Virus record (IMG/VR): IMGVR_UViG_2519103024_000008
Direction: 5' to 3' (one strand)
From: a virus
Taxonomy: Duplodnaviria > Heunggongvirae > Uroviricota > Caudoviricetes
Length of the DNA stretch: 18,317 nt
This document shows, one piece after another, positions 1,920-15,397 of the stretch; positions within the stretch are counted from its first letter, which is position 1; every line of letters begins with the position of its first letter. Below the pieces are notes generated by a model that did no database searches, had not been told where the DNA came from, and worked only from the letters and a program-made list of their open reading frames with translations. Made by a program: the position numbers and the translations under genes.

Positions 1920-4900
1920 TATGCAAGCCTCACAATATAGTTAAATGCGATGTTTTTGACGGTGTTTTCCGCGTTACCAGCAGCGTTAACGGTGATGGTG
2001 TGTCCATGTGAACCAATCGCAACGGAGTGCGTATGCGCACCAATACCTACAGTATGTGCATGTGCGCCAGAACTTGCTGCAGTACCAGACAGCGAGTGGG
2101 TATGAGCACCTGCTGACTGTGTCTGAATACGTTGATAATACGATCTACGGGAAGAAGTCCCCGGGCTTACTTGATACTGTGAATCCTGGACATAAGTGAA
2201 CCCACCGCCATCATAAAATGCTAACGCAGAACCGCCGCCTCCTGGCCAACGAATACCATTACCATGAGTATGATCACCGGCAGACCCCGTAGAGCCACTC
2301 AGACTGTGCGTATGCGCCCCGGTGTTATTCGTGGATTTGGTTCCGTAATCAAACGACGATGTGTTTTTCGTCCCCAAATCCGTACTGGATGCGCTGGCGC
2401 TGTGGGTGTGCGATTTAATGCCGTCCTGTTCCTGAGACAATACGGCACGACCACTGGCGGGTTTGCCCTTAATCGTCCAGCCACGCATATCAGGGATCAC
2501 GCCTGACGGATAAGCGGCTGCAAGTTTTGGGTATGCAGATTTGTCAAAAGTCTGCCCCTGCATCAGGGCATAGCCAGACGGAACGGTATCTGATGGCCAC
2601 GGGATTGGTGCGCCAGGCGGATAAAACTGCTCTGATGGCGTATAGAGTGAATAAACTGTACCGTCCGTTAACCCTTCCGGCTTATTAGCAGAATATGCTG
2701 GTGACGTATGAATCGTCACGCTGGCATTACTGGTATAATCCCATTGAATATTTACACCAGTCGCATAATTTCCGATTGCAACGTAAATATCGTAAGTATC
2801 ACCAGATGTATTGACCCAGGCAAAATTTGTAAACCCTGTCGATGTGCGCTGCCATAAAGCACCAGTAATCCCCTTCGGATTACCATTACCTGCACGCAAA
2901 ACAAGTTCAGATATACCTGCCTGTTGAGGTGACCCCACGTTAAATCCCGCACCACCAATCAACGTAATTGAAACAACAGAACTCGCCTGTGGCATGGTTA
3001 CCGTTGCTAATTTGAACCAACCAGCACCACCGCTGAATGACATTGTTGTTGAGTTAAGCGTACCAATATCTTTCGGCGTCAGTGTTATATCCGCTGAAAG
3101 CGCCTTACCATTCACCTTACGGGCAGAAGGTACCCGACCATTCGCATTATTATTAGCTGCTTTCACTGCTTTCGGTGTCGCGGCAAGCGTTTCAGATGCG
3201 CTGTTNNNNNNNNNNNNNNNNNNNNNNNNNNNNNNNNNNNNNNNNNNNNNNNNNNNNNNNNNNNNNNNNNNNNNNNNNNNNNNNNNNNNNNNNNNNNNNN
3301 NNNNNNNNNNNNNNNNNNNNNNNNNNNNNNNNNNNNNNNNNNNNNNNNNNNNNNNNNNNNNNNNNNNNNNNNNNNNNNNNNNNNNNNNNNNNNNNNNNNN
3401 NNNNNNNNNNNNNNNNNNNNNNNNNNNNNNNNNNNNNNNNNNNNNNNNNNNNNNNNNNNNNNNNNNNNNNNNNNNNNNNNNNNNNNNNNNNNNNNNNNNN
3501 NNNNNNNNNNNNNNNNNNNNNNNNNNNNNNNNNNNNNNNNNNNNNNNNNNNNNNNNNNNNNNNNNNNNNNNNNNNNNNNNNNNNNNNNNNNNNNNNNNNN
3601 NNNNNNNNNNNNNNNNNNNNNNNNNNNNNNNNNNNNNNNNNNNNNNNNNNNNNNNNNNNNNNNNNNNNNNNNNNNNNNNNNNNNNNNNNNNNNNNNNNNN
3701 NNNNNNNNNNNNNNNNNNNNNNNNNNNNNNNNNNNNNNNNNNNNNNNNNNNNNNNNNNNNNNNNNNNNNNNNNNNNNNNNNNNNNNACTCGCGTCGTTGT
3801 CGTAGCGTCCTGAGCAGTATATTTCCCGTTAGCAAGGTCATAGGCTGCCTTTACCGACTTTGGCGTTGCCGCCAGCATTTCAGATGTGCTGTTGGTTGCA
3901 CTACTGAGCTGGACAATTCCTTTTTGTGCTGTCGTAGCGTCCTGAGCAGTATATTTCCCGTTAGCAAGGTCATAGGCTGCCTTTACCGACTTTGGCGTTG
4001 CCGCCAGCATTTCAGATGTGCTGTTGGTCGCGTTGCTAAGCTGAACTATCCCTTTCTGTGCTGTCGTTGCATCCTGTGCGGTGTATTTCCCGTTAGCCAG
4101 CTCATACGCGGCCTTAACGGCTTTTGGCGTTGCCGCCAGTGACTCGGAAGTGCTGTTAGTCGCACTGCTGAGCTGTACTATCCCCTTTTTCGTCGTGCTC
4201 GCATCCTCAAGCGCCACGGCGGATGCAATATCCTCTGCCCGTTTTGCCGCTGTCTCAGCGCGCGTTGCCGCGGATTCCGCCGTACTTTTGCTCTGAGCTG
4301 CCGCCGTCGCACTGCCAGCTGCCTCTGTCGCCTTCGTGGATGCCGTCGTGGCGCTGCCCTTTGCTGCTGACGCCTGTCTGGTCGCCTCATCTTTTGAAGC
4401 AGACGCAGATGATGCCGATGACGCCGCCGAACTGGCGGACGATGCGGCAGCCGTTTTTGAGGATTCTGCGCTGGTTTCCGACGCTTTCGCGTTCGTCTTG
4501 GATGTCTTCGCTGCGGAAGCAGACCTCGCTGCTGCGCTGGCCTGTACAGCGGCTTCGCCAGCCTTCGTTGTGGCTGTTGAAGCAGACGATGCAGCACTTT
4601 CTGCCGATTTTCCGGCGGCGGTGGCACTGGCTGAGGCCTGCCCGGCACTTGTTGACGCGGCACTGGCAGATAATGCAGCCGCTGTTTTTGAGTCTGCCGC
4701 AGCTGAGGCGCTCTGTCCCGCTGCCGTTTCAGAAGACCTGGCGTTCGTCTCGGACGTTTTTGCCGCCTTCGCAGAATTTGCTGCCGCCGTTGCCGAGGAA
4801 GCTGCGCTGCTGGCGCTCGAGGCTGCGTTCGTTTCTGATGATTTTGCCGCCTCTTTTGAAGCCGACGCATCCCGTGCTGAAGTGGCTGCTTCTGACGCTT

Positions 4901-6400: not shown

Positions 6401-9400
6401 TCAGCTGATACTGATGCCTGCGGTGGCTTTCTTCATCACCACAACCAGCAAATCGCTGATACTTGCTGTGGGATACCAGTTATTCACCAGCCATGCTGAC
6501 ACCGAAAACTCCAGCGTCATGTGGCCGCGACCAGCTGGCATATCAATAACACCACTGTAAATCAGCGTATTATCCAGCGCGGTACGGTTATAAATTTCAG
6601 CACCGTTTTTCCGTACTATCAGGCGGCATGACGAATAAATATCGTTATTCTCCCGCTCATGTTTAGCGCCGCTGAATGCCACCGCCGGAATAACAATCTG
6701 CCGGTCAAACGGCTGATCGTCATAAACCCTGACGGTGATGGTCCCTGATGGCCACCGTTCCGGTGCACGGGAGTCCCGGGGGAAAGCTTTGCCCACTGTT
6801 TTAACGAGATCGCCTTCAATCTGGTTGGCGGACAATTTTCCCAGAACCCGACAGTTCTCGTTAATCGTGACGTTGTTGAGCGTCCCGGAGTTCGCATTCA
6901 CGTTACCGCTGATATCGGCATTTTTCGCCGTCAGCCGCCCGTCCGGTGTCAGGGAAAATGCCGGAGGATTACCGCCGCTGGTAATGGTCGGAGCCGTCAG
7001 GCGTTTCAGGAACACGTCGTTCATGAATATCTGATCGCCCTGACCAACAAACATCGGCTTTGTGTTGCCATTCGCAGGATTAATCATCGCAATCCGGTCA
7101 GCAGCCAGAAGCACCTGACTCTGCATACCTGCTGGCGTATTCTCAATACCGGCTCCGATACCCGCAATATAAAGGCGTCCGTCCTTCATCTGCTGCAGTT
7201 TCACGGCCCACATGCTGTTCAGGTTATTATTTGTATCAACCTGAACTTTCTGTATCTGCTGGATTGCCGCACTCTGGTCTTCCAGTTTTTTATTGACGGT
7301 CTGCGTGATTTCATTGCTGACATTCGTAATGGACGTCCTGATTTCAGCCAGGTCCGGCGCAAGCTGACCGTTATCAATCTGCGTCCACAACTCCTGGGCC
7401 AGATGTGTTTTCCCGATTTCTCCTTTGAAAAAATCCAGGTAACCTTCCGCATCATCGCTCGCCCGACCGACAGCCTCCACGAATGCCGATTTGCCAACGG
7501 TGTTCACACTGCGAACGTAAAAATAATAATCATGGCCCGGTTTGATATTGATACTGGCGGCTATCCAGTACAGCGCCGTACCAAGATAGCGGGCTGTGGT
7601 TTCAACCTGCCTGATATCGGTAATCCGCTTTTCCGAGAACCAGAACTCAAACTGTACCGTCGGGTCATAAACAGCAAGATGCGGCGTGGCGGTTATCTGA
7701 AAATAGCCCGGCGTCAGCTCAATCCTCGACGGTGCTGCCGGTGCGGCAATCCGGAACGATACCGACGCCGGATCGCCCTGCTGCCCCCGGGCATTTACCG
7801 CCCGGACTGTCAGCCTGTAGTTCCCCAGCGCCAGTTGCGTGAAGCGGTATGTGGTTTCCGTCGTCCGGGCCGTGCTGACCAGTCGCTCACTGCCGTCGTC
7901 CGCTGTTACGGTCAGACGGAGCAGGAAGCTCACGCCCTTCACCACCTTCGGTGTGTCCCATCGCGCCAGCACCTGATATTCCCCGCTGTCTGCAGTGACT
8001 TCGGCGGTCAGGTGCTGCACTGCTGGCGGCGTGACACCATTCACCGTGCCGCTCTGGTCACCGTCAAAGTGCGCCCCGTTATCCACGATGGCTTCTTTCT
8101 CCGGTACATGCTGCACGGCGGTGATGGCATACGTGCCGTCATCGTTCTCACGGATACTCACGCAGCGGAACAGGCGCTGGCGCAGCGTCGGCAGCTTCAG
8201 CCCCCACACGCTGTATTCTGCAACGCCGTCAGGAACACGGCTCACTTTCACCTTCACGCCGTCGGTGACGGACTGGACCTCCACGCTGACCGGATTACCC
8301 TGACCGTCAACCAGGCTTATCAGCGTGGTACCGGAGGATGGCAGCGTGATTTCACGGTCGAGCGTCAGCGTCCGGGTCTGGCTGTTCACCGCCAGCACGC
8401 GCCCGCCAATGCTGATCCCCGCATAGTCATCATCGCAGATTTCAATAACATCACCCGGTACATGGCGAAGCCCTTCTGCGCCGACGCTGAAATCCACGGT
8501 CTGCGTCTCCAGCAGTTCCGTTTAATCAGCCACAGCCCGGCGCGGTGTGCCTGCCCCCGGCTGGTCAGCCAAAGGCATCCATCTTCGTGACGTTACGACC
8601 GTAACGGGCAATGGCCTGCGTGTCCTCCACAGCTCTGTCNCCGTCTCCCAGCCGTTATCCGGTCAATCCAGTTCANNNNNNNNNNNNNNNNNNNNNNNNN
8701 NNNNNNNNNNNNNNNNNNNNNNNNNNNNNNNNNNNNNNNNNNNNNNNNNNNNNNNNNNNNNNNNNNNNNNNNNNNNNNNNNNNNNNNNNNNNNNNNNNNN
8801 NNNNNNNNNNNNNNNNNNNNNNNNNNNNNNNNNNNNNNNNNNNNNNNNNNNNNNNNNNNNNNNNNNNNNNNNNNNNNNNNNNNNNNNNNNNNNNNNNNNN
8901 NNNNNNNNNNNNNNNNNNNNNNNNNNNNNNNNNNNNNNNNNNNNNNNNNNNNNNNNNNNNNNNNNNNNNNNNNNNNNNNNNNNNNNNNNNNNNNNNNNNN
9001 NNNNNNNNNNNNNNNNNNNNNNNNNNNNNNNNNNNNNNNNNNNNNNNNNNNNNNNNNNNNNNNNNNNNNNNNNNNNNNNNNNNNNNNNNNNNNNNNNNNN
9101 NNNNNNNNNNNNNNNNNNNNNNNNNNNNNNNNNNNNNNNNNNNNNNNNNNNNNNNNNNNNNNNNNNNNNNNNNNNNNNNNNNNNNNNNNNNNNNNNNNNN
9201 NNNNNNNNNNNNNNNNNNNNNNNNNNNNNNNNNNNNNNNNNNNNNNNNNNNNNNNNNNNNNNNNNNNNNNNNNNNNNNNNNNNNNNNNNNNNNNNNNNNN
9301 NNNNNNNNNNNNNNNNNNNNNNNNNNNNNNNNNNNNNNNNNNNNNNNNNNNNNNNNNNNNNNNNNNNNNNNNNNNNNNNNNNNNNNNNNNNNNNNNNNNN

Positions 9401-9926
9401 NNNNNNNNNNNNNNNNNNNNNNNNNNNNNNNNNNNNNNNNNNNNNNNNNNNNNNNNNNNNNNNNNNNNNNNNNNNNNNNNNNNNNNNNNNNNNNNNNNNN
9501 CTGGATCTGAACCAGCAGGCGGACTTCCGACGGATTCCTGTCCTCCTTTGAGGTGGTTTCCACCAGTGCCTGCACACCGAAGGTAAAGCGCAGACGGTCG
9601 ATGTTTGCCGACGTGATGGTCCGGGTGATCGGCGTGTCATATTTCACTTCCGTACCCAGCACCGTCTCGGAGCCGGAGGATTCAAATCCCTCCGGCGGTG
9701 TCTGCTCCTGCTCACCTGCCCGGAACACCACCGTGACACCGGATATATTGGTATTCCCCTCACTGTCCAGCACCGGCGTACTGTTCAGCAGCACGCTTTT
9801 TAATCCGTCCACCGGACCTTCAACCGGCCCTTCGCTGATGGCATCGATCACACTCAGCAGCTGCGTGGACTTCAGGTTGTCCCTCGCTTCGCGCGGGGTA
9901 TGCCCCTTACTGCTTCCTTTACCCAT
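6401..9926 (-). CDS. J: Tail tip / host-specificity protein J (central tail fiber), interrupted by gap 8676-9500 and with frame breaks in 8498-8675
   Basis: N-terminus [54 protein letters not shown] and the long central region match lambda J as recalled. SD GAGGA precedes the ATG at 9924-9926. The last ~150 aa differ from lambda. The frame is restored by assuming 4 single-base deletions next to the gap. Confidence 0.85.
8676..9500. other. Assembly gap (825 N) inside J; isolated ambiguous base at 8640
   Basis: Run of N read directly from the sequence. Confidence 1.
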
Positions 9927-11788: not shown

Positions 11789-12542
11789 NNNNNNNNNNNN
11801 NNNNNNNNNNNNNNNNNNNNNNNNNNNNNNNNNNNNNNNNNNNNNNNNNNNNNNNNNNNNNNNNNNNNNNNNNNNNNNNNNNNNNNNNNNNNNNNNNNNN
11901 NNNNNNNNNNNNNNNNNNNNNNNNNNNNNNNNNNNNNNNNNNNNNNNNNNNNNNNNNNNNNNNNNNNNNNNNNNNNNNNNNNNNNNNNNNNNNNNNNNNN
12001 NNNNNNNNNNNNNNNNNNNNNNNNNNNNNNNNNNNNNNNNNNNNNNNNNNNNNNNNNNNNNNNNNNNNNNNNNNNNNNNNNNNNNNNNNNNNNNNNNNNN
12101 NNNNNNNNNNNNNNNNNNNNNNNNNNNNNNNNNNNNNNNNNNNNNNNNNNNNNNNNNNNNNNNNNNNNNNNNNNNNNNNNNNNNNNNNNNNNNNNNNNNN
12201 NNNNNNNNNNNNNNNNNNNNNNNNNNNNNNNNNNNNNNNNNNNNNNNNNNNNNNNNNNNNNNNNNNNNNNNNNNNNNNNNNNNNNNNNNNNNNNNNNNNN
12301 NNNNNNNNNNNNNNNNNNNNNNNNNNNNNNNNNNNNNNNNNNNNNNNNNNNNNNNNNNNNNNNNNNNNNNNNNNNNNNNNNNNNNNNNNNNNNNNNNNNN
12401 NNNNNNNNNNNNNNNNNNNNNNNNNNNNNNNNNNNNNNNNNNNNNNNNNNNNNNNNNNNNNNNNNNNNNNNNNNNNNNNNNNNNNNNNNNNNNNNNNNNN
12501 NNNNNNNNNNNNNNNNNNNNNNNNNNNNNNNNNNNNNNNNNN
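11789..12542. other. Assembly gap (754 N) covering the M 3' end and most of L
   Basis: Run of N read directly from the sequence. Confidence 1.
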
Positions 12543-12826
12543 ATACTGACCTGCGACGACCATTTTGCGCAGGTCACCTTTATCTGCCTGTAACCATAAG
12601 GCGGCGTCCACAGAAAGGCCTTCCAGCCCCCGTGCTCAGCCAGAAACGACTCCAGCGCCGTGGCCTCCTCACGGGAGACAGACAGCGTCACGCTGTACGT
12701 TTTCAGGTCAGCGTTCAGCCCGGCAGGCGCACGCTGGGAATAGCCATCACCAAAGCGCACCTCCCTGACGGAAGGAGCCGATGTCACATCCATCCCGGGT
12801 TTCACTTTCCAGCGGAAGGTTTTCAT
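12543..12826 (-). CDS. M: Minor tail protein M, 5' portion (94 aa visible; 3' end in gap)
   Basis: MKTFRWKVKPGMDVTSAPSVREVRFGDGYSQRAPAGLNADLKTYSVTLSV matches lambda gpM as recalled. Its ATG (12824-12826) overlaps the H stop codon. Confidence 0.85.
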
Positions 12827-15397
12827 CGTCCACCTCCGGAGAACAGTCCACCATCACGCATCTGTGTCTGAATTTCATCACGGGCACCCTTGCGGGCCAT
12901 GTCATACACCGCCTTCAGAGCAGCCGGACCTATCTGCCCGTTCGTGCCGTCGTTGTTAATCACCACATGGTTATTCTGCTCAAACGTCCCGGACGCCTGC
13001 GACCGGCTGTCAGCCAGACTGCCCGGTGTACCGACATAACCACCGGTGGCATAGCCGCGCATCAGCCGATAGAGATTCCCCACGCCAATCCGGCTGGTTG
13101 CCTCCTTTGTGAAGACAAATTCACCACGGTGAACAATCCCCGCTGGCTCATATTTGCCGCCGGTTCCCGTAAATCCTCCGGTTGCAAAATGGAATTTCGC
13201 CGCGGCGGCCTGAATGGCTGTACCGCCTGACGCGGATGCGCCGCCACCAACAGCCCCGCCAATGGCGCTGCCGATACTCCCGACAATCCCCACCATTGCC
13301 TGCTTAAGCAGAATTTCTGTCATCATGGACAGCACGGAACGGGTGAATCCCCGCCAGTTCTGTTCGCTGCCGGTCAGCATCGCCGCCATATTCTGTGCAA
13401 TACCGTCAAAGGTCTGCGTGGCCACACTTTTAACCTGCGAAAAACTGTCCGTCGCACTTTCCGCCCACTCTCCCCAGCCGGACTTCATCCCGGCCATCCA
13501 GCTTCCACGAAGCTGCTCCTCCGCAGACCAGGTGTTCTTCAGTGCCGATGTGGCCTTCGCCAGCGCAGCCGGATTATCACCGTACACCTCACGAAGGCGC
13601 TGCTCTTCCGACTCCCGCTGCGCCTGACGGTCGGTGAGGCCGCGGGCTTTTGCGCTGATTGCCGCCTGCTTCGCGCTTTGCTGCTGTTCAAACCGCGCCG
13701 CCTGCTGTGCCAGCTCATTCAGCCGCTTCTGGTGTTCAATCTTGTCTCCCAGCTCAGCCAGCTGGCGTTTGTACTCCAGCGTCTCTTTCTCATGAGCCAG
13801 CAGGGATTTTTCCTGCTCAGATAACTGCCGTTTCGTGGCGGCCTCTTTCAGGACCACATACTGACTTTCCGCTTCCCATAAATCCCGGCGCTGCTGGCTG
13901 ATTTTCTCATTCACACCGCTGTGTTTTTCCAGCGTCCTGAGCTCGGTTTCAAGCGCCAGCAGGGCTGCATGCGCCCGGTCTTCCTGGCGCTCACCGGCAG
14001 ACACCTTCACACCTGACGGCTTTTTCAGCGTCGATTCATAATCCTTTTTTGCCGACGCCATCAGCGTGTTGTAATCCGCCTGCAGGATTTTTCCGTCTTT
14101 CAGGGCCTTATTCAGCTCTTTCTGACGGGCGGTATATTTATCCAGCGGCGTCTGCAGGCGCTCATACGCCTTCTGCGCCTCTCCGGTATACTTCAGCTGT
14201 GACGACTCACGCTCAGCCCTGTCCCTTGCCGCCAGTTCACCGGCTTTTTCCATATCCGACTGCAGCGTGGCCGCTGCCAGACCCAGACGGGCATTTTCCC
14301 GGTCATCCCATGCCCCCTGAAGGTTCGCACGAAAAGAGGAGGTCTTTCCCCGGCGCTGGCTCCGGCTCTGGTACCACTGCCATTTTTTATCCGCCTCATC
14401 AAATGCCTTCTGCGCACTGGCGAGCATATCCGCTGAGGATTCCGGACGACCGATATCCAGAATGGCATCCCACATCGATTTGAATGCCTTCCCTGTTTTA
14501 TCCGCCCAGGTCTCCAGTGTTCCCATGTTTTCTTTCAGGCGACGGGTCTGCTCATCAAAGCCTTTCGTGGCGATATCGTTCGCCGCCTGCAATGCCCCGG
14601 CCTCGTCTCCGGAACGCTGCAGCTGTGCAACATACGCAATCTGCTCTGCCGTCACGTTACGGAACTGGCGCGCCATCGCCATCAGTCCCGACGTCGGGTC
14701 AGTGGTCAGCTTCCCGAAGGCTTCAGCGACTTTATCCACCTCCACACCGGATGCAGACGCAAAACGCGCGACACTCTGGTTGATGGCATCAAACTGTTCA
14801 CCACCACGCACACCGGCATTCACCAGGGCTGCCAGTGACTCTCTCGCCTGGTTAAACGTCAGCCCTGCTGCCTGCCCGGCTCTTGAGAGCGTCAGCATAC
14901 GATCGGCAGTCAGTCCGGCCTGATTGCCGGAAAGGACCAGCGTTTTATTAAATTCTGAAAGCGTGGCGTCGCCCTGGTACCAGGCGTACGCCAGCGCACC
15001 TGTCGCCACCGCCAGCGAGGTGACCCCGACCATCGGCAGGGTGATCGCACCGGCAAGCCCCCTGAACATGGGGATCATCCCGCCGAAGGAGTCCTTCACC
15101 TGACCGCCCTGTTGCAGCAGGATCAACCAGGGATTCTGACCACCGGCAAGCTGCGTGGCGATATCCGTAAACTGTGCGGGCAGGGTTCGCATGGCCGCTT
15201 TATACTGCCCGGACGGAAATCCCGGCTTTTTGTGCAGCCAGCGCCTGGCGGCTCAGGCCCTGTTCAACAGCACTGGCGGTTTTTCTGGCGTCGGTATCCA
15301 GACCTGAAAAATGACGCCTTACCCGGCTCATCTGCTCATCGAAACGGACAGCATCCAGACTCAGGTCAATAACAAGATCACCAACCGGCTGGGACAT
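12823..15397 (-). pseudogene. H: Tail tape measure protein H, about 857 aa, broken by a +1 frameshift (extra C/G) at about 15208-15214
   Basis: Two adjacent ORFs (15200-15397, 65 aa; 12823-15192, 789 aa) jointly cover a lambda gpH-like protein (MSQPVGDLVIDLSLDAVRFDEQMSRVRRHFSG ... QTQMRDGGLFSGGGR). Removing one base from GTCCGGGCAG restores a continuous ...ISVGQYKAAMRTLPAQFTD... reading. May be sequencing error rather than true inactivation. Confidence 0.8.

Follow-up and report, generated by a model that had tools for sequence, protein, structure and literature searches.

The stretch of DNA analysed here, referred to as the window, is 18,317 nt in length. Its minus strand carries the tail half of a lambda-type prophage, with the genes in the order head-tail joining, Z, U, V, G, T, tape measure, M, L, K, I, a small ORF, J, lom, side tail fibre and tfa; the plus strand bears a gene for a SAM-dependent methyltransferase. 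Prophages that have been annotated beside yciE-trpA in E. coli APEC O1, ATCC 11775 and GON1437 are collinear with it over this region. Gene J lies where it is found in a lambda-type tail module (tape measure, M, L, K, I, J, lom, side tail fibre), and the gene calls of the source record concur.

That record is HE572566.1 (GCA_000285375.1), a gapped, scaffold-level draft of an E. coli chromosome of 4,989,509 nt. It was identified through exact protein matches to two ORFs of the window, the 698-amino acid remainder of J and the 789-amino acid remainder of the tape-measure gene. The window corresponds to its final 18 kb, positions 4,971,150-4,989,466, such that nucleotide 1 of the window is 4,971,150 of the record. 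HE572566.1 ends 43 nt past the window, within the head-tail joining region of the prophage. Since it terminates inside a prophage, the record evidently represents an ordered scaffold rather than a circle that was closed.

There are three long runs of N in the window, together with one isolated N (Table 1). The lengths of the runs are unequal to those of the corresponding sequences in APEC O1, and thus they are size-estimated scaffold gaps; the same mismatch in all three rules out the reading of the runs as masks of equal length. The gap at 3206-3786 falls where the side tail fibre gene has a 132-nt tandem repeat, present as 3.4 copies in APEC O1. Its 581 N against 36 nt would be accounted for either by a strain with about four extra repeat units or by a misestimated gap size. 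Through the gap at 11789-12542, gene M loses its 3′ end and gene L the greater part of its length; both edges of this gap are clean.

The intact J homologue of APEC O1 (WP_000515772.1) comprises 3,480 nt and encodes 1,159 amino acids. In the window the gene is broken by the 825-N gap and by a cluster of errors adjoining it, and it was annotated as two genes, of 142 and 698 amino acids, in the source assembly. As deposited, J is therefore not the single uninterrupted ORF of ~1,130-1,160 codons, being interrupted by the gap and by four frameshifts; the addition of four bases restores the ORF. The GpJ set of Pfam domains is nevertheless found across the two pieces. The 142-amino acid piece matches FNIII-A_GpJ, and the 698-amino acid piece matches Ig_J, Ig_J_second, Phage_Tail_Tip and Ig_GpJ_C. 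The domain Phage-tail_3 is located at amino acids 330-496 of the intact APEC O1 homologue, a section that spans both the gap and the error cluster.

Table 1. Positions of gene J, the sequence defects and the gaps (window numbering; sequence changes are given in the sense of the gene; edge, the gap edge at 8675)
Feature	Position	Strand	Remarks
Gene J (lambda-type tail tip / host specificity protein)	6401..9926	-	blastn to APEC O1 gpJ WP_000515772.1; Pfam
Sequenced 5′ part of J, 142 codons	9501..9926	-	one private change at 9544
Scaffold gap (N-run) within J	8676..9500		825 N; stands for 775 nt in APEC O1
698-aa ORF, very probably artefactual: 3′ part of J that stays in frame past the last deletion	6401..8497	-	
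Error cluster: four 1-nt deletions and one N	8521..8663	-	J codons ~405-455, inside the Phage-tail_3 domain
Deletion 1: CCC>CC (GACCCGG>GACCGG; window GG, reference GGG)	8661..8662	-	13 nt from edge
Single ambiguous base N	8640	-	C in all references; 36 nt from edge
Deletion 2: TT>T (GCTTGTG>GCTGTG)	8631	-	44 nt from edge
Deletion 3: GTA>GA (CTGTACC>CTGACC), outside homopolymer	8565..8566	-	110 nt from edge
Deletion 4: AAAA>AAA (ATTAAAAC>ATTAAAC)	8521..8523	-	152 nt from edge
Tape-measure ORFs split by +1 C	15200-15397 and 12823-15192	-	
N-run	3206-3786		581 N; 36 nt in APEC O1
N-run	11789-12542		754 N; 647 nt in APEC O1

Four deletions and an uncalled base beside the gap in J

The first-pass annotation, made from the letters of the sequence, had followed the J reading frame between the gap and the downstream ORF through a succession of segments in shifting frames. 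Translation of 8400-8676 in the three frames of the minus strand gives exactly these five segments, the first two being NWID and DNGWETXTEL, in the frame order 0>2>1>0>2 with one -1 shift between each segment and its neighbour. The annotation had also proposed an alignment at the nucleotide level to an intact J homologue. We placed the sites by such alignment to the intact J genes of APEC O1, ATCC 11775 and phage 2H10, and from lists of differences obtained using blastn. Aligned with these three sequences, this part of the window exhibits four single-base gaps and the N, with no further difference. All four aligned deletions fall within the short ranges that had been estimated from the translated segments, and three of the four lie in runs of 2-4 nt, the GTA>GA deletion being the exception, again as had been described. 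The ambiguous base and the adjoining gap are likewise present as reported, as a single N at 8640 and an N-run at 8676-9500.

The T removed by deletion 3 opens the 3-nt loop of a short inverted repeat, GGCTG-TAC-CAGCC. It is a matter of speculation that this repeat could render the position prone to error.

The whole window was compared with the APEC O1 locus using blastn. The 16,156 called bases align in four blocks with just eight differences, and the list of differences from ATCC 11775 is the same. Five of the eight lie no more than 152 nt from the gap edge at 8675, and a sixth, at 9544, is 44 nt from the edge on the far side of that gap; the remaining two are an additional C at ~15212 and a G>A change at 2528. 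For the occurrence of five of eight differences in one given stretch of 152 nt the binomial probability is P ~4e-9, or ~9e-7 when corrected for the choice of that stretch, and for six of eight lying no more than 152 nt from any of the six gap edges P ~8e-7. The defects thus adjoin a scaffold gap, and the distances in Table 1 indicate that they become denser nearer to it, as would be expected for an artefact of assembly.

Repair of the cluster requires the insertion of C, T, T and A, and the replacement of the N by C. The resulting 2,279-nt 3′ part of J is the same as that of APEC O1 base for base, and the 759 amino acids that it encodes are identical. There are consequently zero substitutions in the repaired 2,279 nt, with no rise in substitutions in the sequence flanking the deletions.

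The change at 9544 is a G>A in the sense of the gene that is private to the window. It converts GGGGG to GGAGG within a run of five G, giving G128E in J. It was absent from all 8,584 of the 8,584 homologous sites in complete genomes, and is probably a contig-end error too. Elsewhere, the 11 nt at 3787-3797 that adjoin the gap at 3206-3786 align to no complete E. coli genome, although the adjacent 103 nt are 100% identical. The edges at 3205, 11788 and 12543 are clean, and hence of the six gap edges two or three are dirty. Taken together, the clean and dirty edges are consistent with errors at contig ends, yet the assembly does not show dirty ends throughout.

Two differences lie away from the gap in J. 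An extra C at ~15212 (CGTCGGG>CGTCCGGG in the sense of the gene) splits the tape-measure gene on the minus strand into ORFs of 65 and 789 amino acids. It was found in 0 of 3,428 homologous sites of complete E. coli genomes, and lies 2,670 nt from the nearest gap. We regard it as probably a further assembly error, in this case without a contig end to explain it. The second, at 2528 and 678 nt from a gap, is a G>A change relative to both APEC O1 and ATCC 11775; it falls towards the 3′ end of the distal side tail fibre gene. All other differences in the window are either indels or near a gap edge.

Occurrence of the deletions in other genomes and assemblies

The sequence of 8300-8676 (377 nt) was used as a megablast query against phage records and 5,426 complete E. 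coli genomes, where 376 query bases align with 380 subject bases. The four deletions were found in none of 8,932 homologous sites, distributed over 4,431 of the 5,426 complete E. coli genomes. No site is 99% or more identical to the query. The best identity among these genomes is 98.7%, which corresponds exactly to the four gaps plus the N; in the light of this, the lack of any homologous site at 99% identity means that the deletions are shared by none of the near-identical copies in these genomes. The cluster is thus confined to a single assembly, with independent genomes that are nearly identical being free of it, as would be expected of an artefact.

We also searched for the deletions by exact pattern. 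No contig among the 2.9 million of IMG/VR matched the exact pattern of deletion 1, 2 or 4. Site 3 is intact in at least 120 IMG/VR contigs, and the deleted form was matched once, in IMGVR_UViG_2531839476_000019; the deletion-3 sequence had no match in genome_contigs. The matching sequence is an unrelated draft contig that carries a different J allele. Between 10280 and 10338 it has four indels and three mismatches in 58 nt when compared with the closest complete genome, while the rest of the 640-nt stretch is identical. Given this local patch of errors, the contig is a second draft containing errors, and provides no independent confirmation of deletion 3. It suggests that this stretch of J is prone to trouble in assembly or sequencing.

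Observation of GTA>GA in two unrelated assemblies could be taken to indicate a recurrent mutation. On that reading the loss of T from the loop of GGCTG-TAC-CAGCC would be a real and recurring mutation of lambdoid J genes, and J would be truly inactivated. With the second occurrence lying inside an error patch, we give this a minimal likelihood.

Most E. coli genomes contain more than one copy of J-like sequence. Using the 377-nt query there is a median of 2 and a maximum of 8 sites per genome, and APEC O1 contains 5. Repeats of this kind are a usual cause of contig breaks, and the likely reason for the break here is that prophages of the same genome share the 5′ part of J as a repeat. Many of the IMG/VR contigs with an intact site 3 terminate within a few hundred bases of the J site. 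This would fit with J being a common point of contig breakage in draft E. coli assemblies.

Origin of the frameshifts in J

Indels at contig ends and in regions of low coverage are familiar in draft scaffold assemblies, arising from homopolymer undercalls in pyrosequencing or from the degraded 3′ tails of capillary reads. We conclude with high confidence that the four frameshifts and the N in J are base-calling errors at a ragged contig end, i.e., an assembly artefact. The first-pass annotation had favoured error at a contig end over the decay of a pseudogene, and that view is supported by the zero substitutions in 2,279 nt, the increase in density towards the edge, the existence of other dirty edges, the absence of the deletions from complete genomes and the gapped scaffold from which the sequence comes.

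The errors probably arose in the following manner. The contigs of HE572566.1 are joined by N-runs of estimated length, and one such contig has its ragged end in the ~150 bases of 8521-8675, a section probably covered by a single poor-quality read or very few. The base caller or the consensus step would then have lost one base at each of four places, in three of them shortening a homopolymer of 2-4 nt, and would have failed to call one more. In all likelihood the true sequence is identical to J of APEC O1 and ATCC 11775.

The spectrum of errors comprises one-base miscalls of homopolymer length, one undercall of 1>0, an N, and an isolated +1 C elsewhere, and would be compatible with either low-depth pyrosequencing or the degraded tails of capillary reads. 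From the pattern alone we infer a technical cause, whether low coverage as such, a read tail or undercalling of homopolymers in pyrosequencing. Some observations do not fit so readily with an artefact. GTA>GA is outside any homopolymer, and occurs also in an unrelated IMG/VR contig; moreover three of the six gap edges are clean.

The deletions might instead be real, with J a decaying pseudogene of a defective prophage and the proximity of the gap a coincidence. The reading frame of J as deposited is truly broken four times, the frameshift in the tape-measure gene at ~15212 is far from the gaps and would fit a prophage undergoing inactivation, and one of the four deletions is present in another assembly. 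Real decay of prophage genes, however, introduces substitutions alongside indels, is spread over the gene, and is common to related strains. Here there are four indels in 152 nt compared with zero substitutions in 2,279 nt of J and two in the other ~14 kb. The cluster adjoins a gap edge, is densest near that edge and includes an N, and the deletions are seen in none of the ~8,900 homologous sites of complete genomes. Outside the cluster the prophage corresponds to apparently intact copies in APEC O1 and ATCC 11775. Thus the substitutions, the spread along the gene and the inheritance by related strains that would mark a decaying pseudogene are all lacking. Four frameshifts without a substitution, and private to one assembly, lead us to reject pseudogene decay, which we consider very unlikely.

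The contig end might also be a consensus of several slightly different copies of J, derived from prophages of the same genome or from a mixed culture, so that the indels and the N would result from the collapse of repeats. The multiplicity of J-like sequence in most E. coli, and the termination of many IMG/VR contigs near the J site, could both be accommodated. Yet a consensus of mixed copies should yield substitutions or ambiguity codes at the positions where the paralogues differ, and every called base is that of the APEC O1 allele. Moreover, the affected sites are invariant in the aligned J alleles, with 8640 being C in all. On the strength of the match to a single allele and the invariance of the affected columns, we judge a consensus of collapsed paralogues to be extremely unlikely. 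Programmed frameshifting is improbable, as it would require four consecutive -1 events, which are conserved in no homologue.

Returning to error at a contig end, it follows that J is probably intact in the organism and identical to WP_000515772.1, judging from the sequence that was called; the 775 nt inside the gap are unsequenced, and a disruption could lie there.

Curation of J and comparison with known systems

The observed defect is almost certainly an assembly artefact instead of a real feature, and there is no new biology in it. Its value lies in curation. There is no basis here on which to score J as a pseudogene or the prophage as defective, and the 142- and 698-amino acid 'genes' are pieces of one gene. 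Indel errors occur at contig ends of the assembly and probably, as the tape-measure frameshift illustrates, at some positions away from them, and caution is therefore required over other frameshifts in HE572566.1.

In common with the pseudogenes of cryptic lambdoid prophages, J in the window is a structural gene in which the frame is broken several times. Unlike them, it lacks accompanying substitutions, the breaks are not spread along the gene, and they are not shared by related strains. The resemblance to the known pattern of contig-end errors is much more extensive. The single-base deletions mostly shorten short homopolymers, they are accompanied by an uncalled base, and they fall in the last ~150 nt before a gap of estimated size. 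They are denser towards the edge and private to one assembly, with flanks that are otherwise perfect. The one departure from the typical pattern of homopolymer undercalls is the deletion that lies outside a homopolymer.

Lastly we may compare J with the lambda gpJ of lambdoid prophages, using WP_000515772.1 and the genomes of APEC O1 and ATCC 11775. The deposited gene differs in consisting of a 5′ piece of 142 codons, a gap, a stretch of ~150 nt with four frameshifts and an ORF of 698 codons, and unlike WP_000515772.1 it has the private G128E change adjoining the gap. In other respects the two are alike. The gene order (K, I, small ORF, J, lom, side tail fibre, tfa) and the Pfam domains agree, and once the four bases are restored the sequenced nucleotides are identical.
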